64,000 nt of DNA from Squalus acanthias (GCA_030390025.1 CM059431.1:99078001-99142000), one strand, 5' to 3'. Counted from the stretch's first letter, positions 3,155 to 46,936 are shown. The notes: generated by a model not told the origin, from the sequence alone. A program made the numbers and translations.

Positions 3155-3484
3155 CGACCACATTCAAACGGATGGTGTGTCCCATTGCTTTTACATCCCC
3201 TTGGTTGGCTCGACATTGGTAGGAGCCTCTGTCAGTCAGGTTAATGGAAGAGAATGTGTAAACAATCAACATTTGGGCTGTGTCATTGGGAGAAGTTGTC
3301 CAGTTTATTTTTTCTCCACCCAGTGGCTCACAACTGTTTGAATGGAATTTACACCAATGCACCGCAAGTGGTTTTACTCGACAGTACTCTATCGTACAAT
3401 TCAACGTCAAACTGTCTCCAACAGAACGATTGAGCACAGCTCGGGGATATCTCACTTGCAATGAACAAGCATCACTTCCGTTTC
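3155..3484 (-). CDS. BTLA: Ig-domain exon of a BTLA (CD272)-like receptor
   Basis: 330-nt phase 1-1 exon, acceptor ttttcttttacag|GA and donor GTCG|gtaagt. Translation GNGSDACSLQVRYPR...LTLNCTIEYC...VHWCKFHSNSC...DRGSYQCRAN...GHTIRLNVV has six Cys in the BTLA pattern (C..CxxxYC..WCK..C..YxC) and six N-glycosylation sequons. Confidence 0.85.
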
Positions 3485-4559
3485 CTGTAAAAGAAAAGTT
3501 CAAAATGTTCTTCTATTGTCATCTTCATACAAAGGAATTTGCAAACAATGGCCTAGAGATTCAGCCGCACTGCCGACCGCTAAACGGCCTCCAACACAGC
3601 GGGCGGGAAGCACATGCTCCTTACGAGCCAGGTGAGGCGTTGGTGTCGACACAATTTGTCCGCAATACGCGGTGGACGGTGTAACCAGGAGGGGAGAGAG
3701 AGAGATAGCAGTCTGGTCAGCTTCACCTCTGGTTTAGGATTGAAGTAACAGCGCAGAGGAACCCCCAGCGGGAGAGCTGAACGGGGCTGAAGTGCACAGT
3801 GGTCACAATCCCGTGGATCCCAGCTTTCTTTTGTGTCACTTCTATTGTTGATTTATTCCTGCACTTCATTGCAACGGGGTTCCCACCCCCCGCCTTCGCC
3901 CCACAGCTCGGGCCTCAGAGGGCTGTGAAGGCAGGAAGGCGTCTCATCTTTTTCCCTTGTTTGTGAGCTGAAATCGCTGGGGGTCGAGAGCCCATGGTAC
4001 GAGGTGGGGGTGGGGTGGGGGGGGGAAGGGGGTGACCGAAATAATTTAATGTCAGATAATTGCACTTTAACGAGGTGGGAACAGCTGCTTGAACTCGCCT
4101 GAAACAGCCGGCGAGCGTAATACGGTTCAGGTGTTGCCTTAGTAATTGACGCCTATGGCAATGGAAAATGGCCGGCACCAATGTTCCCCAGTAAGCTTTG
4201 CCGCGATCTGCTGGTCCTGCACCGCCGGCTCAACGGGGTTCTTCTAATGGCAAAAACCGCGGTAATTTGAATGCGCCGCGCAGCCTCGTAACGGGGCCAG
4301 GCACCCAAAATAAAAATCAGTGGGATCATTGGCCAGCACCCTTTGCCCAATATAGGAGGCAGCCCCCAGGATAAGCGGGGACGGTGGAAGCAGTGGGGTC
4401 TGTACTGACGACAAACTGCACTGATTTTGGTGATTGGAGAAAAGGGCAAACCTTGTTCTTCAACACGCTAACCACATATGAGTGGAAGGCTGTTGCATGC
4501 CTGCACAATGGACCCCAGTGAGTCTACAATCAGGTCCACGAACTTGCCCGGGATCCCTT

Positions 4560-4850
4560 TTTATTTATTTATTCATTCTGGGGATGTGGGCGTCGCTGGC
4601 AAGGCCGGCATTTATTGCCCATCCCTCGTTGCCCTGGATACAACTGAGTGACTCGCTGGGCCACTTCAGAGGGCAGTTAAGGGTCAACCACGTGGGTGTG
4701 GGACTGGAGTCACATATAGGCCCAGACCGGGTAAGGACGGCAGGTTTCCTTCCCTGAAGGTCATTAGTGAAGCAGATGGTTTTTTTTAGGACAATCCACA
4801 GCTTTATGACCACTTTTAACCGACACCAACTTTTTATTTCCTGATCTGAC
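4560..4850 (-). mobile_element. tRNA-SINE family B fragment
   Basis: Shares the core agggaaggaaacctgccgtccttacccggtctgg with 16330-16710 and 45777-46480; tail matches the LINE family X end. Confidence 0.75.
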
Positions 4851-5196
4851 TGGGGCCATTCCAGAACATGAGGGTAAGCCCAAGGTGACTGATGACATGA
4901 AAATGCCCGATAGTGTGGTGTAGCCGACTACCCCGGAGATCGAGCATGGCCTGCTGAATCTTTCTTCCCTGCCTTTGAGAATTAAACAGGGGGCCGAGTG
5001 AGAGCAGTGGGGAATTAGCCCCCTGAGGCACCGGGTGAGAAGACGGTGTAGTGCCCTGGGATTGGATACCAGACAGTGTCCTGCCAGGCTGCTCGAAACC
5101 AGAATGACGGAATGCAATAAGCACGATCCCCTTCAGGGCTGTCACAACAACTTCTGACTCTGCCTCTTGTGTTATTAATGTTAGCATTTCAGAGGA

Positions 5197-5695
5197 TCAG
5201 AGAATGATACAGCACAGAAGGAGGCCATTCGGCCCATCGTGCCTGTGCCGGCTCTTTGAAAGAGCTCTCCAATTAGTCCCACTCCCCCCTGCTCTTTCCC
5301 CACAGCCCTGTAAATGTTTCCTTTTCAAATATTTATCAAATTCCCTTTTGAAAGTTACTATTGAATCTGCTTCCACCGCCCTTTCAGGCAGCGCATTCCA
5401 GATCACAACAACTCGCTGTGTAAAAAAAATCTCCTCATCTCACCCTCTGGTTCTTTTGCTAATGACCTTAAATCTGTGTCCTCTGGTTACTGACCCTCCT
5501 GCCACTGGAAACAGTTTCTCCTTATTTACTCTATCAAAACCCTTCATAATTTTGAACATATCTATTAAATCTCCCTTTAACCTTCTCTGCTCTAAGGAGA
5601 ACAATCCCAGCTTCTCCAGTCTCGCCACATAACTGAAGTCCCTCATCCCTGGTACCGTTCTGGTAAATCTCCTCTGCACCCTCTCCAAAACCTTG
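5197..5695 (-). mobile_element. CR1 LINE 3' fragment
   Basis: [10 protein letters not shown]...[16 protein letters not shown]...TRGHRFK CR1 ORF2 C-terminus and 3' UTR. Confidence 0.85.
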
Positions 5696-6489
5696 AAGGT
5701 GCAAAAATAAACCTGCAGCTCTGCCCCGATCACCGTTTTAAGGTTAGCATCATCTGCACTGAAGCTCACCACAAGCAAACGTCTTTAGCTTATTGCAAAC
5801 TGCTTATTCGTACAACTAACAATTTTTCTTCTTTCAAACACTTTAATAATTTCAGGTTCCTGATTTACTCTGAACACAAGTGTGTTTTTTTTACTTTAAA
5901 TTCATGTATTTTGTTCCTCTTGCTGGGATTATTGGAACCAGACTCCTTCTCTGTCTATATTTTTGTTAGGTTTCGAATATTTCTGTTGGGTAAGGGTTTT
6001 GGGGGATATGAATCAAAGGCGGGTAAATGGAGTTGAGGTGCTGATCAGCCGTGATCTAATTGAGTGGCGGAACAGGCTCGAGGGGCTCAATGGCCTCCTA
6101 TTGTCTCCAGATGGTCAGTTCTCTACTTGATGGTCAATGCTCTAGTAAAGCAGATAAGCCAATGTAAATGGGAGCTCCAATGGCCAAGGGCATCGGGGAG
6201 TGAGATCTGCCAATAGTAGACTACAAGAACTTTAATGGTTGTAACTGTGAAACGTGCAATTGCCTGTGGAAAATGCTCAAGCTGAACAGCTCAGGCTACC
6301 AGCTATGGTTGGTGCTGTGGAGAGTGTGGTGGGCTGGGTGTGGCGCTCGGTGGAATGGTGCGGGGCCAGTGAGAGGAACAAGTGAAACAAGATGTGTGAG
6401 GTAGGTTCACATTTGGAATATGAATGCACAAATATAACCTTGTTCTCAAGCCCACATTGACAACAAATTATTCAAGGCTTATTTTAAAA

Positions 6490-6890
6490 TTTTAAAATTC
6501 TCACCCTTGTTTTCAAATCCCTCCATGGCCTCGCCCCCCCTCCCTATCTCTGTAATCTCCTTCATCCCCCACAACCCCCTGAGATATCTGCGCTCCTCTA
6601 ATTCTGCCTTCTTGAGCATCCCTGATTATAATCGCTCAACCATTGGTGGCCGTGCCTTCAGCTGCCTGGGCCCTAAGCTCTGGAATTCCCTCCCTAAACC
6701 TCTCCGCCTCTCCCTCCTTTAAGACGCTCCTTAAAACCTACCTCATTGGCCAAGCTTTTGGTCATCTGCCCTAATTTCTCCTTATGTGGCTCGCTGTCAA
6801 TTTTTTTGTCTTATAAGACACCTGTGAAGCGCCGTGGGACGTTGTACTATGTTAAAGGCGCTATATAAATACAAGTTGTTGGTGTTGTTG
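6490..6890 (+). mobile_element. L2 LINE 3' fragment
   Basis: GGRAFSCLGPKLWNSLPKP and a gttgttg tail. Confidence 0.8.
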
Positions 6891-7933
6891 TTATAAATCA
6901 ACATTTGTATATCAATAAAAATAGTGTCCTTTTGCCTGTCCATCCATTTTGCGCAATTTCATTGGCTCATGCTAATCACACAGCCACTAAGTCTGAGCTC
7001 TGATTGGCTACAGAAGAGTGTGCTATAAAGTTATAACATGGACAACCTGACTGACGTGTGTTGCTGTGTTTATAACTTTCAAAAGGGAATTGGATAAATA
7101 CTTGAAGGGAAAAATTTTGCAGGGCTGTGGGGAAAGAGCAGGGGGGAGTGGGACTAATTGGAGAGCTCGTTCACAGGCACGATGGGCCCAATGGCCTCCT
7201 TCTGTGCGGTATCGTTCTATGATTCTCTGCCCTCTAGCGCTGAATTATCCTGTAGAGTTTAGCCGAACAAGTTCCTGGGAGTGAGCGAATATTAAATGCG
7301 TAATTATAAATGGATGCATTACATGATTCAATAAATTGGGGTTTTGCATCTTGAAAACAAACATTGTTCCATTTTTTTTTACAGAAACAGATCTGTAAAT
7401 GCCGGAAACGTGCACCTTAGTAATTTATTTTTCTTATTAATTTGGCTTCCAAACTTCAAACTGAAGTGCATGACCTGTGAGATGTATTTTCCAAATGTAC
7501 AAGCTGAAAGTTGTGGCCTTTACCTTGTCTTTCTTCACTGAATTTGAACAGGATGTGGGAGGATGATGCTCATGGGTTTCTCTAAAACCACCCCACAACA
7601 AACTCCTACCAACAATGGTTTCACCACTCAATCCTCTGCCTACTCTCCCATCTAATGTTTCCACTCTGTTTTTCACAGGCTATATTTGTGATACCATCGC
7701 ACAACTGCAGCTCTGTAATTGTTTTGCACCCTTAACAACCTGTCTGGGTTTTACTTTTTGGATGCATTGATGCAACAAAAAAAAGTAAAAGTCATGGTGC
7801 AAATACAGAGTGGAGATTGTGCTCGTTCATCGTGTGACTGCCCCAGGGTGCAGGGTAAAGGGATGCAGAATGGAGAGGGAGCAGAGTCCAAGCAGCGTGT
7901 TATCATGCACAGGCACACGTGTGTGAAGGAGTC

Positions 7934-8232
7934 AGAGAGAAAGAGAGAGAGAAAGAGAGGAAGGGAGAAAGAAAGAGAGAGAGAAAGAGAAAGAGAGAGA
8001 GGAAGAGCGAGAGAAAGAGAAAGAGAAAGAGGAAGGGAGAAAGAAAGAGAGAGAGAAAGAGAAAGAGAGAGAGAGAGAATGAGAGAGAGAAAGAGAAAGA
8101 GGAAGGGAGAAAGAAAGAGAGAAATAGAAAGAGAGAAAGAATGAGAGAGAGAAAGAGAAAGAGAGAGAGAGGAAGGAAGAAAGAAAGGGAGTGAGTAAGA
8201 GAGAGAGAGAAAGAGAGAGAGAGAGCGAGAAT
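7934..8232. repeat. GA-rich polypurine microsatellite
   Basis: (GA)n/GAAA run; source of the ER/SL-rich ORFs. Confidence 0.95.
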
Positions 8233-8309
8233 GTAGACAGATAGACACAAAGGTAGGTACGCCCACTATGGGCAAGCTGGATTTGAATGTAACAGGAAGA
8301 GACACACAC

Positions 8310-8660
8310 TAGAGGTCGCCAACCCTGGTTGGAAAGATTGCTGGAGGTGTTATCACATGACCTCCCGCCCCCACACACCCGCCATTGGTCGCTCGGCACG
8401 TCCATTCACACGGAGCCCCGCCTTCCCACGGCCAATTAGAGAGCGAACAGACTCTTCCTTACCCGATTGGATGATTCTTGACTGTCAATCAAGACAGCCT
8501 TTTTTCATCCCTCTCCAAGATGTTTATATTTAGCACAGAAAGCCTTCAAAGAAATTTAATAAAACACACAATTTGTTTTTAATGCCCAATGATTTGTCTC
8601 TCGGGTTTGCTCACAGCAGCATCCTGGAGATTAATCTTGAGTTCTTGGAGACTCCAAGAC
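8310..8660. mobile_element. Partial hAT-type MITE, same family as 47461-47855 in opposite orientation
   Basis: Starts ggtcgccaaccct; internal sequence is the reverse complement of 47480-47830. Confidence 0.65.
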
Positions 8661-8825
8661 TCAACTCATGACCTCTGGGTTGCTAGTCTGAGACCATTAC
8701 CACGACTCTGTATACTTCACTCAATGTGCTGAAATGGCCGGCGAAAGTACTCATGTTAATGAAGGATTGATGCCCAATTAATCCCCAACACTGAGATGAG
8801 CTGCATGAGCCCTGTATCTCCAAGT

Positions 8826-9243
8826 GAGAATCATAGAATCATAGAATGGTTACAGCACAGAAGGAGGCCATTCGGCCCGTCGAGCCCGTGCCGGCTCTCT
8901 GCAAGAGCACTTCAGCTAGTCCCACTCCCCTGCCCTTTCCCCGTAGCCCTGCAAATTTTTTTCCCTTCAGTTACTTATCCAATTCCCTCTTGAAAGCCGT
9001 GATTGAGTCTGCCTCCACCACCCTTTCAGCCAGTGCATTCCAGATCCTAACCACTCGCTGCCTAAAATAGTTTTTGCTCATGTCGCCTTTGGTTCTTTTG
9101 CCAATCACCTTGAATCTGTGTCCTCTGGTTCTCGACCCTTCCGCCAATGGGAATAGTTTCTCTCTATCTACTCTGTCCAGACCCCTCATAATTTTGAACA
9201 CCTCTATCAAATCTCCTCTCAATCTTCTCTGCTCTAAGGAGAA
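8826..9243 (-). mobile_element. CR1 LINE 3' fragment
   Basis: [17 protein letters not shown]...WNAL...FKRELDK; (attctatg)n tail. Confidence 0.85.
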
Positions 9244-9444
9244 GTGCACACATGATTAAATGCCTAGTGACTGTGGTACAAAAGATTAAACTAACGGGTA
9301 AATTTCAGGAATAGACACTCCCGGTGTGGATCCTCTCCCACAGGGAGCACATAGCGGATGCACAGCCCATAGTTTTCCATCCATTCATTGAAAGGATAAA
9401 TTCTGAAGCGTGCCCTCCCAGCCTTGAGCACTAGGAACACATGT

Positions 9445-9766
9445 CGATTTTAAAATTCTCATCCATGTTTTCAAATCCCTCCATGAGCTCGCCCCTCCCT
9501 ATCTCTGTAACGTCCTCCGATATCTCTGCGCTCCTCTAATACTGGACTCTTGCACATCCCCGCTTTCTATCGCCCCACCAGTGGCGGCCGTGCCTTCAGC
9601 TGCCTGGGCCCTGAGCTCTGGAATTCCCTCCCTAAACCACTCCGCCTCTCTCTCCTCCTTTAAGATGCTCCTTAAAACCTACCTCTTTCCTGGCTTAATA
9701 TCTCTTTATGTGGCTCGGTGTCAAATTTTGTTTGGTAATCGTCCCCGTGAAGCGGTTTGGGATGTT
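9445..9766 (+). mobile_element. L2 LINE 3' fragment interrupted by a CR1
   Basis: L2 3' sequence stops at about 9766 and its tail tataaatgcaagttgttg resumes at 10911. Confidence 0.7.
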
Positions 9767-9776
9767 GGAGGTGCTA

Positions 9777-10910
9777 TGGGCACATGGGATTGGGGGCAAG
9801 GTATTGACTTGGATAGAGAACTGGTTGGCAGACAGAAAGCAAAGAGTTGCAATAAACGGGTCTTTTTCCGAGTGGCAGGCAGTGACTAGTGCGGTACCGC
9901 AGGGATCGGTCCTTGGACCCCAGCTATTCACAATATATATTAATGATCTAGACAAGGGAACTAGATGTAATATCTCCAAGTTTGCAGACGACACAAAACT
10001 GGCTGGGCGTGTGTGCTGCGAGGAGGATGCCGAGAAACTCCAGGATGATTTGGACAGGTTGGGTGATTGGGCAGAAGCATGGCAGATGCAATATAACGTG
10101 GATAAATGCGAGGTTATCCACTTTGCTGTCAAAAACAGAAAGGCAGATTATTATCTGAATGGCAATAGATTGGGAGAAGGGGAAGTGCAACGAGACCTGG
10201 GTGTCCTTGTGCACCAGTCGCTGAAAGTAAGCATGCAGGTGCAGCAGGCGGTTAAGAAGGCAAATGGTATGTTGGCCTTCATAGCGAGAGGGTTTGAGTA
10301 CAGGAACAAGGATGTCTTGCTGCAGTTGTACAGGGCCTTGGTGAGACCACACCTTGAGTACAGTGTGCAGTTTTGGTCGCCTTATCTGAGGAAGGATGTT
10401 CTTGCCATGGAGGGAGTGCAGCGAAGATTCACAAGGCTGATACCTGGGATGGAAGGAATGATGTATGAAGAGAGATTGGGTCGATTGGGCTTATACTCGC
10501 TGGAGTTTAGAAGAATGAGAGGGGATCTCATTGAAACTTATAAAATTCTGACAGGACAGGACAAACTAGATGCAGGAAGGATGTTCCCGATGGTTGGGGA
10601 GTCCAGAACCAGTGGTCACAGTCTAAGCATAAGGGGTAAGCCATTTAGGACAGAAATGAGGAGGAATTTCTTCACCCAGAGAGTGGTGAACCTGTGGAAT
10701 TCTCTGCCACAGAAGGCAGTAGAGGCCAATTCATTAAATAGATTCAAGAAGGAGTTGGATATATTTCTTAAGGCTAAAGGGATCAAGGGATATGGGGAGA
10801 AAGCAGGGACAGGGTACTGAATTTGGATGATCAGCCATGATCGCATTGAATGGCGGAGCAGGCTAGAGGGGCCGAATGGCCTACTCCTGCTCCTATCTTC
10901 TATGATTCTA
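9777..10910 (+). mobile_element. 5'-truncated CR1 LINE with open RT C-terminal half
   Basis: VPQGSVLGP, FADDTK, RPHLEY, SLEFRRMRGDLIE; ORF open to the stop at 10820; same subfamily as 52513-53790. Confidence 0.95.
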
Positions 10911-11134
10911 TATAAATGCAAGTTGTTGTTGTTTTACATAAGAACATAAGAATTAGGAGCAGGAGTCGGCCATTTGGCCCCTCGAGCCTGCTCCGCCATT
11001 CAATAAGATCATGGCTGATCTTTGACCTCATCTCCACTTTCCTGAACTATCCCCATATCCCTTGATTCCCTTAATATTCAAAAATTCATTCTTTTTGAAT
11101 TGTACTGAGTGTACTCAGTATTGTATTGTACTCC

Positions 11135-12185
11135 GCCGCACTGTCGGAGGGTCAGTACTGAGGGAGCGCCGCACTGTCGGGGGTCAGTACTGAGGGAGCG
11201 CTGCACTGTCGGGGGGTTAGTACTGAGGGAGTGCCGCACTGTCGGGGGGTCAGTACTGAGGGAGTGCCGCACTGTCGGGGGGTCAGTACTGAGGGAGTGC
11301 CGCACTGTCGGAGGGGCAGTGCTGAGGGAGTGCCGCACTGTCGGGGGGTCAGTACTGAGGGAGCGCCGCACTGTCGGGGGGTCAGTACTGAGGGAGCGCT
11401 GCACTGTCGGGGGGCAACACTGAGGGAGCGCCGCACCGTCAGAGGGGCAGTACTGAGGGAGCGCTGCACTGTCGGAGGGGCAGTACTGAGGGAGTGCCGC
11501 ACTGTCGGGGGGTCAGTACTGAGGGAGCGCCGCACTGTCGGTGGGGCAGTACTGAGGGAGTGCTGCACTGTCGGAGGGGCAGTACTGAGGGAGCGCTGCA
11601 CTGTCGGAGTGGCAGTACTGAGGGAGCGCTGCACTGTCGGAGGGCTAGCACTGAGGGAGTGCCGCACTGTCGGAGGGTCAGTATGAGGGAGTGCCGCACT
11701 GTCGGAGGGACAGCACTGAGGGAGCGCTGCACTGTCGGAGGGACAGTACTGAGGGAGCGCTGCACTGTTGGAGGGGCAGTACTGAGGGAGCGCTGCACTG
11801 TCGGAGGGGCAATGCTGAGGGAGCGCCGCACTGTCGGAGGGGCAGTACTGAGGGAGTGCTGCACTGTTGTCGTGTGCCGTCTTTCAGATGATATATTAAA
11901 CCGAGAGCCCGTCTGTCCTCTCAGGTGGATGTAAAAGATCTATTTCAAAGAAGAGCAGGGGGTGTTCTCCCTGGTGTCCTGGCCAGCATTTACCCCATAA
12001 TCAACACCTAAAACAGATTATCAGCTCATTTATCACATTGCTGTTTGTGGGAGCTTGCTGTGCACCAGTTGGCTGCTGTGTTTCCTACATTACGACAGTG
12101 ACTATGCTTCAAAAATACTTCATTGGCTGTAAAGGGCTTTGGGACTTCCTGAGGACCTGGAAGGCGCCATAGAAATGCAAGTTCA
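11135..12185 (+). mobile_element. SINE family A with 33-bp array (about 11135-11866)
   Basis: Array followed by SINE body and tail. Confidence 0.85.
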
Positions 12186-13180
12186 GTCTATTTTGTTTGG
12201 CACAGGGAGTATGTAATATCCTTGGACATGCCAGGAATTAAAAAAACTCAGTTTAACAACTTGCATTAAAAAATGTACCTCTCAGTAAAGTACGGAGCTC
12301 AATCATCTAAATGTTAATATTTTAAGGACATTTCCCTTCACCCAAAACAAGAGCAGGAATATGCACACACTGTGAGGACCTGATCCCAATGCCCATCCTA
12401 CAGCTACATATAGAGACACCACAGGTCCCGGCCAGAATGGAGATGATTGGGTAATTCCCCCGTCAATCACTGCTGTGAGTGACTGGTTTTGATTTTACAC
12501 ATCATTTGTATTGTGTACTATCCTCCACTCATTGCATTTTGCTGGAGAAATAATCCTACTTTTATCGGGAGACTTTGCTGCAGTTTTGTTCATGGGTTCT
12601 GTTTGCTGTAGTTCACAGTGACTCTGCTTAAATAGACTCTGTAGACTGTTTGCTATAAACTAGACTCTATTTGCTGAGTAAATAGACTCTGTAGACTGTT
12701 TGCTACGAGTCCTGCCATAAGTCCCGCCCAGCTTCCAACTCATTGGCTGACACAGAGGTGTTGATACTCACTCTATTATTTAAAACAAAACCTTTTCTTT
12801 CCTTAAACAAACGTTAAAATCTAAAATTAATTTCAATGACTAAGCCGCTGTATAAATAGAACACCACAGGGTCTCAGTTGGAGACCACATTTGAACAGAC
12901 CGTAGAATTGACCAGATGCATTTGATCTATGACTCATGGCTGGCCGCTCATGTGCTATGTGGTTTGATGTGGTCAGACACCTTGAGATATACCTATATGT
13001 AACCATCCTCCAAACAGACCACTCTAATATAGCAGGTGTCCTTCACAGGGAGGTCAACCACCCTCAGGAGGCTGTTTCTGTGACATCACAGAGAGAAACA
13101 CCATTTAATTAAAAAAAAATTATTAACCTGTTGTTGTGATCTGGAATGCACTGCCTGAAAGGGTAGATTCAGAAGTAACA

Positions 13181-14061
13181 GCTGCACTGTCGGAGGGGCA
13201 GTACTGAGGGAGCGCTGCACTGTCGGCGGGGCAGTACTGAGGGAGCGCCGCACTGTTGGAGGGGCAGTACTGAGGGAGCGCCGCACTGTCGGAGGGGCAG
13301 TACTGAGGGAGCGCAGCACTGTCGGAGTGGCAGTACTGAGGGAGCGCCGCACTGTCGGAGGGGCAGTACTGAGGGAGCGCTGCACTGTCAGAGGGGCAGT
13401 ACTGAGGGGGCGCCGCACTGTCGGAGGGGCAGTACTGAGGGAGCGCAGCACTGTCGGAGGGCAGTACTGAGGGAGCGCCGCACTGTCGGAGGGGCAGTAC
13501 TGAGGGAGTGCTGCACTGTCAGAGGGGCAGTACTGAGGGAGCGCCGCACTGTCGGAGGGACAGTACTGAGGGAGCGCTGCACTGTCTGAGGGGCAGTACT
13601 GAGGGAGTGCTGCACTGTCGGAGTGGCAGTACTGAGGGAGCGCCGCACTGTCGGAGGGGCAGTACTGAGGGAGTGCTGCACTGTCAGAGGGGCAGTACTG
13701 AGGGAGCGCCGCACTGTCGGAGGGACAGTACTGAGGGAGCGCTGCACTGTCTGAGGGGCAGTACTGAGGGAGTGCTGCACTGTCGGAGGGGCAGTACTGA
13801 GGGAGCGTTGCACTGTCGGAGGGGCAGTACTGAGGGAGCGCCGCACTGTCGGAGGGGCAGTACTGAGGGAGAGCTGCACTATCGGAGGGGCAGTACTGAG
13901 GGAGTGCTGCACTGTCGGAGGGGCAGTACTGATGGAGTGCTGCACTGTCGGAGGGGCAGTACTGAGGGAGCGCCGCACTGTCGGAGGGGCAGTACTGAGG
14001 GAGCGCCACACTGTCGGAGGGACAGTACTGAGGGAGCGCCGCACTGTCGGAGGGGCAGTAC
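13181..14061 (+). repeat. Stand-alone 33-bp SINE-derived minisatellite
   Basis: Same unit, without recognisable SINE head or tail; flanked by CR1-like fragments. Confidence 0.9.
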
Positions 14062-20220: not shown

Positions 20221-20280
20221 TTACTGAAACCCACAGGACACCATTCAGTAAGTCCTTTTAAAGGGCAGTTATCAGGCACA

Positions 20281-30391: not shown

Positions 30392-30482
30392 CTTGTCTCT
30401 GTACGGCAAAGAGAAGCAAGACGGCCAAGAGGAAACCGTCGCGAATTCTTATAAACCACATCGTTCTCCAAAAAGTAGTCAT
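30392..30482 (-). CDS. BTLA: Probable signal-peptide (leader) exon of the BTLA-like gene
   Basis: ATG at 30482 opens MTTFWRTMWFIRIRDGFLLAVLLLFAVQRQ followed by CAAG|gtaagg, a phase-1 donor. It joins in frame (G+GA=Gly) to the Ig exon at 3484. Lies in non-repetitive sequence; not in the ORF track. Confidence 0.7.
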
Positions 30483-30659
30483 TTACCCATTAAAACAAGC
30501 GCACTGGGACCAGGTGGAGAATCGAGCACTTCTCTCAATGATTATCACAAAGTGCTCAAGGCGTTCAAATGAAATCTTGTGAAACTACCAAGCCCTGGCA
30601 TTGTACCTGCCACACTGCGAGTAACATGTGAGTGAGCTGCTCTACGATTCATTCCCCTG

Positions 30660-36647: not shown

Positions 36648-39016
36648 TTACTGGCACCTTCCGGAAGGCCGATTGAGTGACTGCCTCCTCCCTCGCTCTT
36701 GTTCCTCCTCCTCTCCCCCTTTCTCCTCCTGAGGTGGTCCCACAATCCCTGGTGGCAAGGGCTGGGCCCTCATGATGGCCAAGTTGTGGAGCATGCAGAC
36801 CACCACGAAATGGGACACCCGCTCTATCGAGTACTGGAGGGCTCCTCCCGAGTGGTCAAGGCAGCGGAACTGTTGCTTGAGCAGCCCGATGGTCTGCTTG
36901 ATGATGTTCCTGATGGCAACATGGCTGTCATTATATGAGCGCTGAGCAGGAGTGTTGGGGTTGCGGAGGGGAGTCATGAGTCAGGTGGAGAGCGGATAGC
37001 CCTTGTCTCTGACCAGCCAGCCGCGAGCTTGATGTGGTGGCTGGAACAGAGCTGGCACACTGGTCTGGCGCAGGATGAAGGCATCGTGGCTGCTGCCAGG
37101 ATAGTGGGCAATCACATTGAGGATTCGCTGTGTGTGGTCGCACACCAACTGCATATTAAGTGAGTGGTAGCCTTTGTGGTTATGGAAGATGTCAGGATTG
37201 TTTGTAAGCTTCGCAAAATTCCCCAGAAACTCGTATAGAACCCTAAAAGAGGTGAATTTTGGATTTGTCATACGAATTTGGGATGATGGGACCTAAATGT
37301 AGTGATTTGAGGCAGAAACCTCAGTTTTGGACATTTTTAAAGATCAGGGAAGAAAACCCCTGAGGAAAATGACTTTTGGATATGACTATGGGGAAAAATA
37401 CCTTTCACAGACACAAGACAGGCTGCGAAGGGGTGTGGCGAGGCAGTGGACAGCTTTTGGTGTCAAGCTGTCTGGAATTTGTTTGCACTGCAATCCAGGC
37501 AGGAGGAAGAACCTCACCCAAAACCTCACAAACACATCCAAAATTGAATAATTCAAAAACCCTTTTGAAAATCCCCAGGCCCAGTCAAGAAACCCAAAAC
37601 ACGAGGACAATGCAAACTCCGATTAAACAACAGATCGACAGGATGGAGCTATCCTGAAACCACTTCACACATTTACAAAACCAGTTAACACGCTAGTAAA
37701 GTCGTTACTGTTAACGAGGTCTTACAATGACCAGGATTTGATTTGGTTTTGACAAGGCCACTTCAATTTAGTATAATTGAAGGCCCATCAAGCAGTTACA
37801 AGTTCGAGCTCTCCAGTAAAACAGTTCAAGTTCAACAGAATTGAAAGCCTGTGTTGAACAGAAGTCAGGGCTGCAGTTACAGAAGCAGGCAGAAGGCAGT
37901 TTCCACAGTTCTGCAAGAAGGCAGTTCCACAGCTCGGAAGAAGACAGTTTAAACAGAGGCAGAGTTACAGCAAGAAGTTAAACAAAGAAGGCCAACAGCT
38001 TCACAAGCAAACCGACACGCAAGAAGAAACCAGAGCGACTGCCTCAGTGACCATCGGACACCTCGCGGCAACAAGAGCCTCACGAAACCTTTTACTCAAA
38101 AGACTCTAAACCCTAACTCTAAGCTGTCAAGGATTCGTTTGGTGAGCATTATCCCTGGTTCTCCAGAGTCCAACCTAGCTAGTGAAGTGGATTGGGAGGG
38201 GTGAAGTATTCTTCAAATGTTATTTCCCTCGCTTGTACCGAAGTGTTCCCCACTTTTAGCGTGATAAGAGTGTTTGTGTTGTGTTTTACTTCCTTGAATA
38301 AAAGTCAAAGTTTTTTCATCAAAACCTGTTGTCTACTGCACCTTTGTTCACAACCCCCAAATAAGTCTAAGGTCTAGAACCAGGGGCGTGGGAGTGATTC
38401 GAACCGCTCACTGAGTCAGAGGTGAGGCTGACCCCTACCACACCACCCCCTACATGTTATGCGGTGCCCACAAAGCCACGTGGGTGCAGTCAATGGCGCC
38501 CTGCAGCATGGGGAAGCCTGCTATCCGGGCAAAGCCACTTGCACACTCGTCCTGCTTCTCTCTGGTGATGGGGAAGGAAATGTAATCCCTTCTACTGTAG
38601 AGAGCCTCTGTGACCTCCTGGATGCAGCGATGGACAGCGAACTGCGAGATGTTAGTTATATCTCCTGTTGCACACTGGAAGGATCCGCTGGCGAAGAAAT
38701 TGAGGGCGACGGTGACCTTTACTGCCACTGGGAGAGCTGTGGTCACCCTGATCTGAGGCTGGCGGTCTGGTTGCAGGAGGTGGCAGAGTTCTGTGACCAC
38801 ATCCTTCGTGAAGCAGAGCCTTCGAATGCACTGCTCCTCGCTTAATTGGAGGTTGGAGAAGTGCTCTCGGAGTACCCTCGGAGGGTAAGGCCTCCTGTTG
38901 AGAGCCCTGATGGCCCTCCTCCTCCCTCTGGCCACATGTTCCAGTCTTTCTTGCTGCCTCCGCTCCCTCCACCATAGATCCTGGAGGGCAAGGTTGACTG
39001 CCAGTACAGCCCCCAT
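36648..39016 (-). pseudogene. Harbinger (HARBI1-type) DDE transposase, split by an LTR and carrying a nonsense codon
   Basis: 39016-38455: ALNFFASGSFQ...GFPMLQGAIDCTHV. 37202-36648: NHKGYHSLNMQLVCD...YPGSSHDAFIL...DKGYP...GLLKQQFRCL...MLHNLA. TGA at 36981-36983. Confidence 0.9.
37203..38454 (+). mobile_element. Solo LTR (1252 bp)
   Basis: TGTAAG...CTACA termini, 4-bp TSD tgtt (37199-37202, 38455-38458), AATAAA near 38298; removal restores APHNNPDIF in the transposase. Confidence 0.85.
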
Positions 39017-39929
39017 TAATGTAAGGATGTGCAGCACTTTGTTGTGAGAATAAATGTAACTCATTTTTAGAAGCTGCAACACTCCGGAGACTAAACAACA
39101 TTTGAATGACTGAATTCAACTCTTGAACTATCTCAAACTGACAAGGAAGCAGTGAAACTGCACTAACCCGAGAGCTGCGACTCATTCCTCATGATCCCTT
39201 TAAGTAGCGCCCCTGGAGCCGGCTACCGCCTGCTTCACGCCTCCTCTCCCTGTCGCTGTCGGGGCAAGACGCTAAGGCAGGGGGCGATAATCAATTTGGC
39301 AGGTTGGGCGCCCAGTGAGCGTTGCACACTCACTGACATCACGATCTGCCTGGCGCTGAAGTCCCCGGCGCCATCTCGTAGCGGAGGCGCTACGGGGGGG
39401 GGGGGGGGTCGGCCGAATTTGGCGTGCGGCGCTGGATTCACCTCGTCATGGCGCTACTTCCTCAGCGCCCCGTTAGCACCCGCGCCAGGCGCTAACTGGA
39501 GGCACTAAGGTACCGAATTTCTCCCCCACAGTGTTTAACTTGCTGTAAGCAGCAAATTTGTAATAGACTATAAAAGTAATGAAAATGTTTAGTGTTTTTT
39601 AGCCAATTTTAACAAAAGCCCAATTTAAACATTGGTGCCTCGGGGAGTGTGGACTGTATCAAAGAGAATACCTTGCCCAACTTCCGATCTGTCAGAAAAG
39701 GAGCAGAGATTTTGCTGCCGTCAAGACGATTTTCTCCCTAAAATATATGATGGATCCACGATTCATAAATATATCGTTTTTAAAAACAGGTTCTGTGTTT
39801 ATTGAGATGGGTGACATACAGAAAGAACGTATAAACACCAGAGAGAGAAAAATAAAGAACGGAATCTTTTTGAAAACGGCAAGACTCAGTTCACCCTGAA
39901 TATCAAACTAGCCCGGAACTGGAAACAGA

Positions 39930-41190
39930 TTTAAATAAAAACAGACAACGCTGGAAACACTCAGCAGGTCAGGCAGCATCTGTGGAGAGAGAAACAGAGT
40001 CAACGTTTCAGGTCGATGAACTTTCGTCAGAACTGGATTCTTTACTTTACAGCCTTCTGGGCTCAACATTGAGTTCAACAATTTCAGATCAAAACCATCG
40101 CTCCCACTTTTTCGGAGAGCAGTTGCTGTTAATGATTCTGCTGTTGCCATTTACACCTCCTCTAGAGTCATCTTTTGTACCATTACTTGTTCCATTACCA
40201 TCTCCTTCTGCCTCGCACCATCCTCCCTTTAATCTCTCCTGCCTTCCATCCTATCACAGACCTTCCCTTTTGTTCTTTCCTCCCCTCCCCCCTTTCCCTG
40301 CCCCTGCACTTTCTTAAAAACCTGTTACATCTCCAACTTTTCCCTGTTCTGATGAAAGGTCATCGACTTTTTTTAATTCTTTCATGGGATGTGGGTGTCA
40401 CTGGCAAGGCCAGCATTTATTGCCCAGCCCTAGTTGCCCTTGAGAAGGTGGTGGTGAGCTGCCTTCTTGAACAGCTGCAGTCCGTGTGGTGATGGTACTC
40501 CCACAGTGCTGTTAGGGAGGGAGTTCCAGGATTTTGACCCAGCGACGATGAAGGATCGGCGATATATTTCCAAGTCAGGATGGTGTGTGACTTGGAGGGG
40601 AACTTGGAGGTGGTGGTGTTCCCAAGCGCCTGCTGCCTTTGTCCTTCTAGGTGGTAGAGGTCGCGGGTTTGGGAGGTGCTGTCGAAGAAGCCTTGGCGAG
40701 TTGCTGCAGTGCATCTTGTAGATGGTACACACTGCAGCCACGGTACGCCGATGGTGGAGGGAGTGAATGTTTAAGGTGGTGGATGGGCTGCCAATCAAGC
40801 GGGCTGCTTTGTCCTGGATGATGTCGAGCTTCTTGAGTGTTGTTGGAGCTGCACTCATCCAGGCAAGTGGAGAGTATTCCATCACACTCCTTACTTGTGC
40901 CTTGTAGATGGTGGAAAGGCTTTGGGGAGTCAGGAGGTGAGACACTCGCCACAGAATACCCAGCGTCTGACCTGCTCTTGTTGCCACAGTATTTATGTGG
41001 CTGGTCCAGTTAAGTTTCTGGTCAATGGTGAATCCCAGGATGTTGATGGTGGGGGATTCGGCGATGGTAATGTCGTTAAATGTCAATGGGCGGTTAACTC
41101 TGTTTTTCTCTCCACAGATGCTGCCTGACCAGCTGAGTATTTCCAGTAATTTTCTGTCTTTATTTCAGATTTCCAGCATCCGCAGTATTT
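39930..41190. mobile_element. Second Penelope family: inverted 3' ends interrupted by LINE family X (40368-41092, minus strand)
   Basis: Homologous to 53916-54360; the ctgatgaaaggtcatcgac motif breaks at 40368 and resumes at gttaactc (41093). Confidence 0.7.
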
Positions 41191-41199
41191 TACATGATT

Positions 41200-41449
41200 T
41201 AAATGATTATTACATGGTCACTTTAATAGATAGTTTGATATTTCCACAAAACCGTTGTAAATTACACGCATACTTGTTTTAAATTGTACACAAACTAATA
41301 GTGACTGAACTAAGAAAAGGTTCCACAAATGGCGAGCCAGGCATCTCATTGCTGAGCCACTGTCTGCAGACCGAAGCGTATCGCTTCTGCTGGAGCTTCT
41401 GCTGGAGCTTCTGCTGGAGGGCTACGGTCGATTCATTCCTGGAAACGAC
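41200..41449 (-). other. Candidate terminal (3' UTR) exon of the second Ig gene
   Basis: Strong acceptor tatttgttttgtcacag|G at 41449 in unique sequence downstream of the 44390 donor; ATTAAA on the minus strand at 41222-41227. Confidence 0.35.
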
Positions 41450-41549
41450 CTGTGACAAAACAAATATCAACACGTTACCAGCCCCAAACCTGCACCCAGA
41501 GCTTCATCAGAATCAAGACCTGGGACAAAACTACAGACACACTTAAGGA

Positions 41550-43438
41550 TCATTCAAATACCACTCCAGAGACTTGAGCACATAATCCAGGCTGACACTC
41601 CCAGTACAGTACTGAGGGAGCGCCGCACTGTCGGCGGGGCAGTACTGAGGGAGCGCCGCACTGTCGGAGGGACAGTACTGAGGGAGCGCCGCACTGTCGG
41701 CGGGGCAGTACTGAGGGAGCGCCGCACTGTCGGAGGGACAGTACTGAGGGAGCGCCGCACTGTCGGAGGGGCAGTACTGAGGGAGCGTCGCACTGTCGGA
41801 GTGGCAGTACTGAGGGAGCGCTGCACTGTCGGAGGGGCAGTACTGAGGGAGCGCCGCACTGTCGGAGGGGCAGTACTGAGGGAGCGCTGCACCATCGGAG
41901 GGGCAGTACTGAGGGAGCGCTGCACTGTCGGAGGGGCAGTACTGAGGGAGTGCTGCACTGTCGGAGGATCAGTACTGAGGGAGCGCCACACTGTCGGAGG
42001 GGCAGTACTGAGGGAGCGCTGCACTGTCGGAGGGTCAGTACTGAGGGAGCGCCACACTGTCGGAGGGGCAGTACTGAGGGAGTGCTGCACTGTCAGAGGG
42101 TCAGTACTGAGAGAGCCGCACTGTCAGAGGGTCAGTACTGAGGGATGCTGCACTGTCAGAGGGTCAGTACTGAGGGAGCGCCACACTGTCGGAGGGGCAG
42201 TACTGAGGGAGTGCTGCACTGTCAGAGGGTCAGTACTGTGGCAGCGCCGCACTGTCGGAGGGGCAGTACTGAGGGAGCGCCGCACTGTCGGAGGGGCAGT
42301 ACTGAGGGAGCGCCGCACTTTCGAAGGGCATGTACTGAGGGAGTGCTGCACTGTCAGAGGGGCAGTACTGAGGGAGTGCTGCACTGTCGGAGGGTCAGTA
42401 CTGAGGGAGCGCCACACTGTCGGAGGGGCAGTACTGAGGGAGTGCTGCACTGTCAGAGGGTCAGTACTGAGGGAGTGCCGCACTGTCGGAGGGGCAGTAC
42501 TGAGGGAGCGCCGCACTGTCGGAGGGGCAGTACTGAGGGAGCGCCGCACTTTCGAAGGGCTTGTACTGAGGGAGCGCTGCACTGTCGGAGGGGCAGTACT
42601 GAGGGGGTGCTGCACTGTCAGAGGGTCAGTACTGAGGGAGCGCCACACTGTCGGAGGGGCAGTACTGAGGGAGTGCTGCACTGTCAGAGGGTCAGTACTG
42701 AGGGAGCGCCACACTGTCGGAGGGGCAGTACTGAGGGGGTGCTGCACTGTCAGAGGGTCAGTACTGAGGGAGTGCCGCACTGTCGGAGGGGCAGTACTGA
42801 GGGAGCGCCGCACTGTCGGAGGGGCAGTACTGAGGGAGCGCCGCACTTTCGAAGGGCTTGTACTGAGGGAGCGCTGCACTGTCGGAGGGGCAGTACTGAG
42901 GGGGTGCTGCACTGTCAGAGGGTCAGTACTGAGGGAGCGCCACACTGTCGGAGGGTCAGTACTGAGGGAGTGCTGCACTGTCGGAGGGGGCAGTACTGAG
43001 GGAGTGCCGCACTGTCGGAGGGGCAGTACTGAGGGAGCGCTGCACTGTCGGAGGGGCAGTACTGAGGGAGCGCTGCACTCTCTGAGGCGCAGTACTGAGG
43101 GAGCGCCGCACTGTCGAAGGGGCAGTACTGAGGGAGCGCCGCACTGTCGGAGGCGCAGTACTGAGGGAGCGCCGCACTGTCGAAGGGGCAGTACTGAGGG
43201 AGTGCTGCACTGTCGGAGGGGCAGTACTGAGGGAGCGCTGCACTATCAGAGGGGCAGTACTGAGGGAGTGCTGTTCTGTCAGAGGTGCCGTCTTTCGGAT
43301 GAGACATTAAACCGAGGCCCCGTCTGCTCTCTTAGCTGGACGTAAACGATCCCATGGCACTATTTTGGAGACGAGATGTCCTGGGGCCAATATTGATCCC
43401 TCAACCAACATCACTAAAACAGATTGTCTGGTCATTTT
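41550..43438 (+). mobile_element. SINE family A with the largest 33-bp array (about 41608-43283, roughly 50 units)
   Basis: Partial head, array with higher-order repeats of variant units, body. Confidence 0.9.
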
Positions 43439-44393
43439 CTGATGACATGGATTAGAGTTTTACAAGCTGCTCCTTGTGATCTTGAGAATAAGGGTTATTT
43501 GGGCACACTAGATTATGATGAGTTCTGCTAACAGTGCCATACCTGTGAGTGTGACAAAACAATTGTTTGAGTCTTAACAGGGGCTATTTCATTATCTTTC
43601 TGTCTGTACATTGATCCCTGGTCTCCATTACGCTGTTCCTGGGTGTGTCCCCGGTGTCCATGTTACTATCTCTATTGATAGTAAAGAAAGAAAGAAAGTC
43701 TTGCATTTCTCTAGCCCCTTTCACGTCCTCAGGACGTCGCAAAGCGCTTTACAGCCAATGAAGCACTTTTGAAGTGTAGTCACTGTTGTAATGTAGGAAA
43801 CACGGCAGCCAATTTGCGCACAGCAAGCTCCCACAAACAGCAATGTGATAATGACCAGATAATCTGTTTTTTTAAGTGATGTTGGTTGTGGGATAAATAT
43901 TGGCCAGTACGCCGGGGAGAACTCCCCTGCTCTTTTAACTAGACAACAGTATCTAAAACATTGGTGGCAATAAGTAAAACCGGATATTAACAAGGTACAG
44001 GATTAATAGTTGCAAAATTAGTTTCAGCAGCCCCTCCCAAACCCCCGACCTCCACCACCTAGAAGGACAAGGGCAGCAGGCGCATGGGAACACCACCACC
44101 TCCAAGTTCCCCTCCAAGTCACACACCATCCTGACTTGGAAATATATCGTCCGTTCCTTCATCGTCGCTGGGCCTAAATCCTGGAACTCCCTCCCTAACA
44201 GCACTGTGGGAGCACCTTCACCACACGGACTGCAGCGGTTCAAGAAGGCGGCTCACCACCACCTTCTCGAGGGCAGTTAGGGCTGGGCACATTCCGAGAC
44301 TGAATCAGTTAAATGGATATTGTTGGGAGAACTGATACAGTAAAATTATAGCCATAATTGTGACATTGCGAAGTAATTCTTTCACTTACCTGT

Positions 44394-44518
44394 TCAAAAA
44401 TTTAACGCAGTGACACACTGCAGAATGAACATTAATACCCACAGTGTATGCACAGAAATCTCAAGGGTTTTCATCCCACTGTTTTCAGCAGCCAGGTCTA
44501 CTTCCTCCTGAAGTTTTC
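44394..44518 (-). CDS. C-terminal exon of the second Ig gene, GPI-anchor-signal-like tail
   Basis: Acceptor aataatacag|GA in phase 1 with the Ig exon 2 kb upstream (A+GA=Arg). Reads RKLQEEVDLAAENSGMKTLEISVHTLWVLMFILQCVTALNF-stop. Strong donor ACAG|gtaagt 4 nt after the stop (exon end 44390). Confidence 0.7.
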
Positions 44519-44627
44519 CTGTATTATTTAGGAAAGTGGAGAAATTAGTTTAATGCTGCAGGTACCTTGGAATCCTTAGAATCAAATATGGGGAAGTGGT
44601 CAACATAGGCACACCATGAAGTGAATT

Positions 44628-45040
44628 AGAGGCTTGTATTCCCTGGAGTGTAGAAGATTAAGGGGTGATCTAATCGAGGTGTTTAAGATGATTAAAGGAG
44701 TTGACAGTGTAGAGAGAGAGAAACTATTTCCTCTGGTGGGGGGAGTCCAGAACAAGGGGGCATCACCTTAAAATTAGAGCCAGGCCGTTCAGGGGTGATG
44801 TCAGGAAGCACTTCTTCACACAAAGGCTGGCGGAAATCTGGAACTCTCTCCCCAAAAAGCTGTTGAGGCTGGGGGTCAATTGGAAATTTCAAAACTGAGA
44901 CTGATAGATTTTTGTTGGGTAAGGGTATTAAGGGATACGGAACCAAGGCGGGTAGATGGAGTTAAGACACAGGTCAGCCAGGATCTGATTGAAGGGTGGA
45001 ACAGGCGCGAGGGGCTGAGTGGCTCCTCCTGTTCCTGTGT
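44628..45040 (+). mobile_element. CR1 3' fragment
   Basis: CR1 ORF2 end and 3' UTR. Confidence 0.8.
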
Positions 45041-45302
45041 AAATTGTTGATGGTGAGGGAAGGTTCTATAGATTGCCAACTACTTGTAAATCCTCGACTC
45101 TTTCCCTTGGTCAGAAGAAACCCACAGGAAACGATTGGTTTTCTATCTTGGATCAATGTTGCAAGTGTGCTCTTGAGATTGTCCAAGAAGAGTTTGGGGA
45201 AATTATAGTCAGGGGAACCTTTTTGGATAATTGGAGCTGACAAACATTTCACTGCAGGGATTGGTGTTCTGGGAGAGACTGTGACTATACGCAGTGTTTA
45301 AA

Positions 45303-45752
45303 TAGAATGTACAGCACAGAAACAGGCCATTTGGCCTGACTGGTCCGTGCCGGTGTTTATGCTCCACTCGAGCCTCCTCCCACCCCTCTTCATCTCACCC
45401 CATCAACATATCCTTCTATTCCTTTCTCCCTCATGTGTTTATCCAGCTTCTCCTTAAATGCATCTACGCTATTCGCCTCAACCACTCCCTGTGGTAGCGA
45501 GTTCCACATTCTAACCACTCTCTGGGTAAAGAAGTTTCTCCTGAATTCCCTATTGGATTTATTAGTGACTATCTCATATTGATGGCCCCTAGTTCTGGTC
45601 TCCCCCACAAGTGGAAACATCTTCTCTGTGTCTACCCTATCGAACCCCTTCAGAATTTTAAAGACCTCGATCAGGTCACCCCTCAGTCTTCGGTTTTCTG
45701 GAGAAAAGAGCCCCAGCCCGTTCAATCTTTCCTGATAGTTAGAGCCTCTCAG
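45303..45752 (-). mobile_element. CR1 3' fragment
   Basis: [20 protein letters not shown]...GIEGYVDGVR. Confidence 0.85.
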
Positions 45753-45776
45753 TGCCCAGAACAGCAAAATATATAT

Positions 45777-46480
45777 TTTTTAATTCATTCTCGGGATGTG
45801 GGCGTCACCGGCAAGGCCAGCATTTATTGCCCATCCCTAATTGCCCTCGAGAAGGTGGTGGTGAGCCGCCTTCTTGAACCGCAGAGGGCAGTTTAAAGTT
45901 AACCACATTGCCGTGGGTCTGGAGTCATATATAGGCCAGGTCGGGTAAGGACGGCAGATTTCCTTCCCTGAAGGACATTAGTGAACCAGATGGGTTTTTA
46001 CAACAATCCGGTAGTTACATTACTGATTCTAGCTTTTTATTCCAGATTTATTTAATTAACTGAACTCTGCTTTGCTTCACAAAAACAAAACAAACCTAGA
46101 AGTAAAGGGAATTAAGGGTTACGGGGAGCGGGCAGGAATTTGGACATGAGTCTAGGTTCGGATCGGTCATGGCCCTGTGGGTAGCGTAGCGGGCCCAGGG
46201 GCCGTGTAGCCTGATCCTGCTCCTATTTCGTGTGTCCAATTCTGTTAGGTTCAGGAGATGGTTCTGTGAGAGTAGATTGGCAGTTAAGATCAGATCAGCC
46301 ATGATCTTATTGAATGGCGGAGCAGGCTCGAGGGGCCAATTGGCCTACTCCTGCTCCTATTTCTTATGTTCTTATGTTAAATTCCCCAGCTGCCGTGGTG
46401 GGATTTGAACTCATGGCTCTGGATCATTAGTCCAGGCCCCTGGATTGCTAGCCCAGCGACATTACCACTGTGCTACCATA
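45777..46480 (-). mobile_element. SINE family B, near complete, with CR1 tails nested (about 46066-46378)
   Basis: tRNA-like head tggtagcacagtggt...gagttcaaatccc near 46480, core and LINE-X-like tail. Confidence 0.75.
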
Positions 46481-46576
46481 CTCGTAAATATAATCTTGTT
46501 TGCACATCTGCCTGGTTGAATATGCAATTACTAGTAATGCAATTAAATTGCTGGTGTACGAAGTTAGTCTACTTAC

Positions 46577-46936
46577 TCCGAACCGTTAAGGTGATGATGT
46601 GTCCATGTGCTGAAATTGACATGGCGCCAGTTATCTTGGCCTGGCACTGATAGCGTCCACTATCTGATTGATCCAGCTTTAAAAACCGAAGGAAGGCAAT
46701 CAGCTCAATGCTCTCATCTTCTTGTGGCTTTGGCTCTGTGAAGCCAACTTCATAGTTATGGTCATCTTCTATTCCAGAACATTCACTTCCTCCGATCAAT
46801 TTCTTACACCAGCGAATATCAGGCCTTTCATTCTTCGAGCTGTTGTAATTCACGGTGCAGTTCAAAGTCAGTCTCCTTCCTTCATCAATCTCAATGTGCG
46901 CTGATTTGTAGATGACCTGCAATGACCCTTCATACT
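46577..46936 (-). CDS. Ig-domain exon of a second BTLA/CD160-family gene
   Basis: 360-nt phase 1-1 exon, acceptor cctattcttcacag|AG and donor CGGA|gtaagt. EYEGSLQVIYKS...EGRRLTLNCTV...IRWCKKLIGGSEC...DSGRYQCQAK...AHGHIITLTVR; four Cys, canonical DxGxYxC. Confidence 0.85.

Follow-up and report, generated by a model that had tools for sequence, protein, structure and literature searches.

BTLA and CD160, both of them drug targets, compete for one surface of HVEM, and in man their genes lie on different chromosomes; to our knowledge, the common origin of the two receptors has not been worked out so far. A locus of the shark Squalus acanthias raises the question of whether they arose as neighbours. 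In a stretch of 64,000 nt (GCA_030390025.1 CM059431.1:99078001-99142000; hereafter the window, with positions counted from its first letter), an earlier note had described a BTLA-like gene and, upstream of it on the same strand, a second gene resembling CD160, and had suggested that the locus preserves the tandem duplication that produced the pair or an independent shark-specific equivalent. We found that the window holds parts of two same-strand neighbouring genes, both encoding single-immunoglobulin (Ig) receptors of the BTLA/CD160 group, and that a gene of CD160 type stands beside BTLA at this locus. On balance, sequence comparisons incline us to regard the upstream gene as the cartilaginous-fish counterpart of CD160.

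Two neighbouring genes of the BTLA/CD160 group

The exons recognised in the window are as follows.

46577..46936, minus strand: 360-nt Ig exon (phase 1-1; protein P0002) of the upstream CD160-like gene
44390..44518, minus strand: stalk and C-terminal hydrophobic (glycosylphosphatidylinositol (GPI)-signal-like) exon of the upstream gene, with a TGA at 44394-44396
30392..30482, minus strand: first coding (leader) exon of the BTLA orthologue, from the ATG at 30482 to a phase-1 donor
3155..3484, minus strand: 330-nt Ig exon (phase 1-1; protein P0001) of the BTLA orthologue

Both Ig exons have an open frame, preceded by a pyrimidine tract and an AG acceptor and followed by a GTAAGT donor. Aligned with each other by BLASTP, they showed 30% identity over 115 columns at E 4e-12, a resemblance far beyond chance. 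Common motifs (exon 3155-3484 first, exon 46577-46936 second) included SLQVRY and SLQVIY, LTLNCT in both, WCKFHSNSC and WCKKLIGGSEC, DRGSYQCRA and DSGRYQCQA, and GHTIRLNV and GHIITLTV. The earlier description of two phase 1-1 Ig exons on one strand was accurate in every shared motif and in the exon ends, and the stop-containing exon 44390-44518 and the leader exon 30392-30482 that it placed between them are both seen in the sequence. Its division of these exons between two genes is likewise upheld, by the stop exon that follows the upstream Ig exon, by a spliced contig and by the separate, conserved BTLA leader. A tblastn search with 89 collected proteins found no third exon of the BTLA/CD160 family in the 64-kb window. 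The exon anatomy, the membership of both genes in the BTLA/CD160 family and one splice junction are established in this analysis.

The downstream gene is a BTLA orthologue

Several lines of comparison identify the downstream gene as the BTLA orthologue of a cartilaginous fish, in agreement with the earlier naming of it as BTLA-like. In phmmer searches of PDB chain sequences, the five best matches of its Ig exon were human and mouse BTLA, with E values from 8.6e-10 to 5.1e-8 over residues 2-108 of 109, compared with E 0.1 for solved CD160. Among longer proteins, all four matches at E<=1e-3 came from sharks (50-55% identity), and three of these were BTLA-like and have YENM/YENA, IIYASL and TEYAAI motifs besides a membrane span; the YxN motif, the immunoreceptor tyrosine-based inhibitory motif (ITIM) and the immunoreceptor tyrosine-based switch motif (ITSM) are present in these three closest shark homologues. 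Against profiles built from the collected domains without the window exons, the downstream Ig exon scored 114.4 bits for BTLA and 83.2 bits for CD160; in leave-one-out controls of these profiles, all 20 CD160-family rows were positive and all 20 BTLA rows negative. In each of three trees, the exon grouped with shark BTLA and BTLA-derived domains (clade support 99/94, 94/93 and 98/90).

The cysteines of the downstream exon point the same way. The exon is of the same Ig type as BTLA of man and mouse (PDB 2AW2, 1XAU and 6NYP; E 8.6e-10) and has all six BTLA cysteines, including those at -23 and +5 from the B-strand cysteine; in human BTLA, these six form three disulfides. The next cysteine after the W-C motif lies at +8, as in all three shark BTLA rows and most BTLA rows of bony vertebrates.

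The leader exon 30392-30482 begins with an ATG, encodes MTTFWRTMWFIRIRDGFLLAVLLLFAVQRQ and ends in a phase-1 GTAAGG donor. Aligned with the N-termini of the BTLA-like proteins of catshark, horn shark and cloudy catshark, it showed 37-57% identity, with nine of 30 columns invariant (M1, T2, T3, R6, M8, W9, F17, L19 and F25), and tblastn matched it to residues 1-15 of P0005. The intron between this leader and Ig exon 3155-3484 spans about 27 kb. A tblastn search with shark BTLA found no membrane or cytoplasmic exons in window positions 1-3154; these exons lie beyond the start of the window. The start region also has two minor features: a four-codon upstream open reading frame (ORF) on the minus strand at 30479-30490 (ATG GGT AAA TGA) ends by overlapping the BTLA start codon at 30482 in the sequence ATGA, and a second in-frame ATG of the leader (M8) is kept in the three shark BTLA-like proteins.

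The upstream gene encodes a tail-less single-Ig protein

The upstream Ig exon matches the Pfam V-set family at E 1.6e-8 and has all core Ig residues. Exon 44390-44518 has an AG acceptor and, in frame from 46577, reads (R)KLQEEVDLAAENSGMKTLEISVHTLWVLMFILQCVTALNF before the TGA at 44394-44396; its end forms a CAG|GTAAGT donor, 4 nt after the stop codon. Any product with this exon ends at that stop. A 17-residue hydrophobic run, TLWVLMFILQCVTALNF, ends directly at the stop with no basic anchor, and it is preceded by a 9-residue spacer and, before that, by the small residues N-S-G. This ending has the typical form of a GPI signal, and every CD160-family protein that we collected has the same architecture; the product is a single-Ig protein with no cytoplasmic part and a probable GPI anchor. 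The CD160 architecture ascribed to this gene by the earlier note is seen in the sequence as one Ig domain, a short stalk, a hydrophobic end and no cytoplasmic part.

Contigs mapped over 43300-55800, from the small runs X1-X3, connect the two exons. Record 18 of X3 (224 nt, depth 5.7) matches 44388-44517 with no mismatch and is flanked by 66 letters before and 28 after the match that map elsewhere. Within the upstream Ig exon, X3 reaches this depth of 5.7 again at positions 46622 and 46626 but has no coverage at 46704, a pattern consistent with the 66 flanking letters being the closing part of that exon. Contigs from X1 and X2 contain exon sequence only (46576-46822 and 46639-46786). We read these data, going by matched pieces and depths and not by a listed junction, as a spliced transcript that joins Ig exon 46577-46936 to exon 44390-44518 and continues through the 44390 donor into a further 3' exon. 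The junction 46577>44518 foreseen by the earlier note is in this way represented by a presumed-RNA contig that covers the stop exon exactly and reaches the Ig exon.

Two forms of bird CD160 with the same hydrophobic segment provide a parallel to a donor placed so close to the stop. The emu protein has a short ending (...VYVKGLVP), and an emu-like protein, P0034, has a cytoplasmic-tail form (...VYVKVRLKSWSDG...); the existence of two endings raises the possibility that a donor at the 44390 position is an old feature of the family.

A further run, X4, from a related species (organism B), yielded a 1026-nt genomic contig over window positions 46458-47422, which takes in the upstream Ig exon and its flanks, with 40 other letters and 16 gaps; in related species the exon is about 95% identical. 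At least ten of its differences fall in the upstream Ig exon; those listed, evaluated by hand, change eight codons and introduce no stop, three being silent (E36, V63 and G103) and five replacing a residue (D39E, K45M, Y61H, E77A and M105L).

Affinity of the upstream gene to CD160

The cysteine pattern and loop lengths of the upstream exon set it apart from BTLA. In BTLA rows, two further cysteines stand about -23 and +5 from the B-strand cysteine. This extra pair is present in the window BTLA exon, in all three shark BTLA rows, in three of four shark BTLA-derived two-Ig domains and in all three two-Ig membrane proteins; the second cysteine of the pair occurs in 12 of 13 BTLA rows of bony vertebrates and is absent from all 20 CD160-family rows. 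The upstream exon has neither cysteine. Its spacing of 15 from the B-strand cysteine to the tryptophan is that of 19 of 20 CD160-family rows, compared with 12-14 in 16 of 20 BTLA rows, and its 54 residues from the tryptophan to the F-strand cysteine fall within the range of the CD160 family (48-61) and outside that of BTLA (43-50). The next cysteine after its W-C motif lies at +10, as in six of nine tetrapod CD160 rows, compared with +8 or +9 in all BTLA rows. Judged by these characters, the known shark-specific derivatives of BTLA kept the features of BTLA, and the upstream gene did not.

Database searches and profiles gave a similar picture. A phmmer search of 1.84 billion representatives with the upstream exon returned 66 matches at E<=1e-3, and in no case did identity over most of its length exceed 37%. 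The best single-domain matches covering residues 4-118 were emu CD160 (2.2e-9) and the CD160-like proteins of leopard gecko and turtle; these best matches of CD160 type ranged from E 2e-9 to 2e-8 at 34-36% identity. Next came unannotated teleost proteins, some named zgc:174945, and a platypus CD160-like protein. The naming of the sauropsid matches is sound: for emu CD160, the first match was human CD160 (2.8e-5), and BTLA did not appear at E<=1. Against the profiles, the upstream exon scored 97.5 bits for CD160 and 70.6 bits for BTLA, and its score of 56.1 bits for shark BTLA was 29 bits lower than that for tetrapod CD160 (85.3 bits). A profile made from the upstream exon and 11 teleost relatives matched human CD160 at 1.6e-8 and BTLA at 2.4e-6. 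The human CD160 motifs that the earlier note had compared with this exon (EGTRLNLICTV and SGTYQCCAR...GHFF) are present in the alignment of 6ng9.

In maximum-likelihood (ML) trees, the upstream gene, nine tetrapod CD160 rows and 11 teleost CD160-like rows formed one side of a branch, with support of 86/77 in a tree of 45 rows and 86/74 in one of 42 rows, made from a second alignment with three long rows dropped. Within that side, the upstream exon was sister to tetrapod CD160 (42/83 and 66/79). Forcing the two window exons together as sisters cost 15.2 log-likelihood units (lnL) with a p value of 0.038 in the approximately unbiased (AU) test, which disfavours a recent local copy. The resemblance of the upstream gene to its BTLA neighbour, noted earlier and evident in the exon comparison, nevertheless stands.

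Evidence against a simple CD160 assignment

Several observations weigh against reading the upstream gene as CD160, and they concern the choice of comparisons, direct similarity, the trees and the gene model alike. All rows in the trees and profiles were chosen as matches of the upstream exon, which may bias them toward look-alikes. The exon has no significant direct match to human CD160, which was absent from the best 60 of 62 PDB matches at E<=10; instead, among solved structures compared by sequence, it found human BTLA at E 0.003. Its link to human CD160 runs, in the sequence comparisons, only through sauropsid CD160. The highest pairwise identity of the exon in the tree set was to a paddlefish BTLA domain (38-39% over 87 columns), and no close orthologue from another cartilaginous fish appeared in word-index and phmmer searches. 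The word-index search gave no candidate among proteins of 65-209 aa, and none of 48 candidates of 210-2000 aa reached E<=1e-3; ESM Atlas returned only generic V-set, PD-1 and CTLA-4 clusters.

Predicted structure also leads to BTLA. The AlphaFold model of the upstream Ig domain is confident, with a predicted local distance difference test (pLDDT) score of 88.2; the alignment behind it had 29 rows and included both the BTLA and the CD160 families. The ten best Foldseek matches of the model were all BTLA (E about 1e-7, template-modelling (TM) score 0.67-0.74), and no CD160 appeared among the matches listed, to rank 50. By VIA-align, the predicted domain superposes best on human and mouse BTLA, with Z 14.7, a root-mean-square deviation (rmsd) of 1.7-2.1 and 24-31% identity over 100-103 residues; unrelated V domains score 13-14, so that the fold comparison does not discriminate, and CD160 was not among the matches listed.

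The trees leave room for a second placement. Forcing the upstream gene with the shark BTLA clade cost 3.2 lnL (p-AU 0.314), and forcing it with all 21 BTLA rows cost 1.29 lnL (p-AU 0.411); the AU tests reject neither placement, and the tree alone cannot decide. The main trees are unrooted, and outgroups, when added, attach to the branch of the upstream exon. Rooting by outgroup was dropped, the three outgroup domains having branches of 2.7-3.5 and one falling inside BTLA. Mammalian CD160 itself forms a long branch (2.3-2.5 in platypus), which may explain why direct comparisons find BTLA before CD160, although the direct matches still count against a simple CD160 label.

Further reservations concern the gene model. 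Comparison of the tail exon with 29 family tails, with 500 shuffles each, revealed no significant similarity to CD160 tails; the best alignment, between the 40-residue tail and tarpon, was equalled in two of 500 shuffles and is not significant after 29 tests. The runs X1-X3 behind the splice evidence were taken to be RNA by guess. No leader exon of the upstream gene was found in 46937-64000 in two crude scans for an ATG, a hydrophobic core and a phase-1 donor, which gave one and three weak candidates, none of them signal-peptide-like.

For the identities proposed by the earlier note, the outcome is divided: BTLA held for the downstream protein, and for the upstream protein the profiles agreed with CD160 while direct comparison with solved structures led to human BTLA. 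The note had also allowed that a phylogeny might group the upstream gene with shark BTLA; the best trees place it on the CD160 side, and the AU tests permit the BTLA side; CD160 orthology is the favoured reading.

Origin of the gene pair and alternative explanations

We tentatively propose, as a serious possibility that falls somewhat short of an expectation, that BTLA and CD160 arose by one tandem duplication before the split of cartilaginous and bony vertebrates, that this locus keeps the original head-to-tail pair, and that CD160 left the BTLA/CD200/CD200R region later, giving the separation seen in mammals. On our favoured reading of the upstream gene as the counterpart of CD160, the duplication separating it from BTLA would predate that split, with the copies still side by side in the shark. 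The earlier suggestion of a preserved BTLA/CD160 duplication is accordingly strengthened in that BTLA has a CD160-type neighbour and CD160 orthology is favoured, and it is weakened in that this orthology is not firm.

A rather less likely explanation, although one to be taken seriously, is that BTLA gave rise to the upstream gene within cartilaginous fish alone, after the split, and that this gene lost its membrane span and signalling tail, its likeness to CD160 being convergent or ancestral. It would account for the position of the gene directly beside BTLA and for solved BTLA being its best match in both sequence and fold, and the AU tests allow it as sister to or inside shark BTLA as well as on the BTLA side generally. 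Sharks have produced tail-less BTLA derivatives before, in catshark LOC119977572 and whale shark LOC109929356. These derivatives, however, keep the extra cysteine pair in three of four domains and cluster with shark BTLA (99/94 and 98/90), whereas the upstream gene does neither; its deficit of 29 bits on the shark BTLA profile relative to tetrapod CD160 and its place on the CD160 side of both ML trees also argue against such an origin.

Two other explanations dispense with a second functional gene. The two Ig exons might belong to one two-Ig BTLA gene of the kind found in gar, paddlefish and catshark, with the stop exon a cassette or a minor product, which we consider very improbable. In its favour, the Ig exons share strand and phase (1-1), so that splicing 46577>3484 would keep the frame, the family does include two-Ig members, and the donor after the stop exon is used. 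Against it, the upstream Ig exon is spliced to the stop exon in the presumed-RNA contig, the two Ig exons are separated by a BTLA start codon and signal peptide that are conserved, and the domains of known two-Ig forms are close copies, for example in gar, compared with 30% identity for the window pair; a minor transcript with the 46577>3484 junction may nevertheless exist. Least probable of all, in our estimate, is that the upstream exons are a decaying or non-functional remnant with no usable 5' end. The failure to find a leader exon in 17 kb upstream, much of it satellite DNA, and an annotated orthologue in other sharks would fit such decay, yet the frames of both exons are open, their splice sites are canonical, no core Ig residue is missing, the structural model is confident, spliced contigs exist (the runs presumed RNA), and the differences listed in the contig of the related species include three silent codons and no stop. 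Given that the first intron of BTLA spans 27 kb, a leader of the upstream gene beyond the end of the window is plausible.

Comparison with known receptors

Like CD160 of man (6NG9 and 6NG3), bird, turtle, lizard and platypus, the upstream gene would encode a single Ig domain, a short stalk and a terminal hydrophobic segment, and it has the loop lengths, the cysteine pattern and the side of the tree of CD160 from birds, turtles, lizards and platypus. It differs from human CD160 in having no significant direct match and no significant similarity of the tail, and from BTLA of man and mouse in the missing extra disulfide, the longer loops and the absence of a cytoplasmic part. The teleost CD160-like proteins (zgc:174945 of sardine and loach; MATL_G00176290 of tarpon), for which the profile score is 78 bits, share with the upstream gene the N-terminus, with SLQVIY in tarpon, a GH motif preceding the final strand, a hydrophobic end with no tail and a Cys-Trp spacing of 15 residues, but ten of 11 rows have an extra cysteine at +9 that the upstream gene lacks. 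The tail-less BTLA-like proteins of catshark (LOC119977572) and whale shark (LOC109929356) resemble the upstream gene in coming from cartilaginous fish and in a hydrophobic C-terminus with no signalling tail; their Ig domains number two, are of BTLA type with the cysteine pair of BTLA, and fall inside the shark BTLA clade, whereas the single Ig domain of the upstream gene is of CD160 type.

The family has a further branch, between the BTLA and CD160 clades, made up of P0046, P0085 and P0044 (zebra shark LOC125466021, whale shark LOC125486521 and caecilian LOC115480504). These proteins combine two Ig domains with a membrane span and a short tail, and their first domain keeps the BTLA cysteine pair and scores equally on the CD160 and BTLA profiles.

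In man, CD200R lies near BTLA in the same region. In a gene model from the green turtle (P0039, Chelonia mydas EMP34796.1), an Ig domain of CD160 (human CD160, 3.8e-7) is fused to a CD200R ectodomain (2.7e-40), and in a frog model a C2 domain weakly resembling CD200R is fused with two BTLA domains. If such fusions reflect neighbouring genes, sauropsid CD160 would lie in the CD200R region; indirectly, both models fit an old linkage of BTLA and CD160.

Possible function and significance

By analogy with human BTLA and CD160, both shark proteins may bind the orthologue of HVEM (TNFRSF14) through an Ig edge strand. Shark BTLA would then act as an inhibitor that signals through phosphatases recruited to its tail, and the upstream protein, because it has no tail, could be a competing or HVEM-activating ligand. 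For the human receptors, one report describes binding of BTLA and CD160 to cysteine-rich domain 1 (CRD1) of HVEM by main-chain pairing of the edge strand (PMC8558838).

If our proposal of an ancestral pair is correct, the combination of an inhibitory receptor with a tail-less competitor would date to the base of jawed vertebrates, and the locus would offer a concrete place for synteny tests. Multiple BTLAs of fish were reportedly described by Bernard et al. in 2007. Our full-text searches found no paper on shark CD160, CD160 synteny or BTLA-CD160 linkage, and a 2026 survey of human Ig superfamily (IgSF) proteins places BTLA and CD160 among mammal-restricted groups (PMC13262535). The ancestral pair would also extend a recent series that reports PD-1, LAG-3 and the CD28/CTLA4 family in sharks (PMC12151841, PMC10768021, PMC11599192). 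If the shark-specific origin were true instead, the locus would represent a repeated invention of a tail-less decoy from BTLA.

Surrounding DNA

The rest of the window consists of satellite arrays and transposon fragments. A scan of 22 of the 82 ORFs of at least 130 aa revealed only reverse transcriptase, GIY-YIG and low-complexity sequence, and no other genes or synteny markers. A 33-bp satellite of about 50 copies occupies 41607-43268, between the two genes, and arrays of the same unit in inverted orientation lie upstream at 55890-56584 and 61194-61460. G-rich arrays cover 58937-60618; another array, of 44/84 bp, occupies 62909-64000 and continues beyond the window end. Fragments of reverse-transcriptase ORFs and a weak GIY-YIG match, possibly of Penelope type, occur at 9699-10820 (plus strand), 52756-53361 (plus strand) and 54318-55106 (minus strand); one reverse-transcriptase fragment is contained in the 27-kb intron of BTLA, and the remaining two matches are found upstream of the CD160-like gene.

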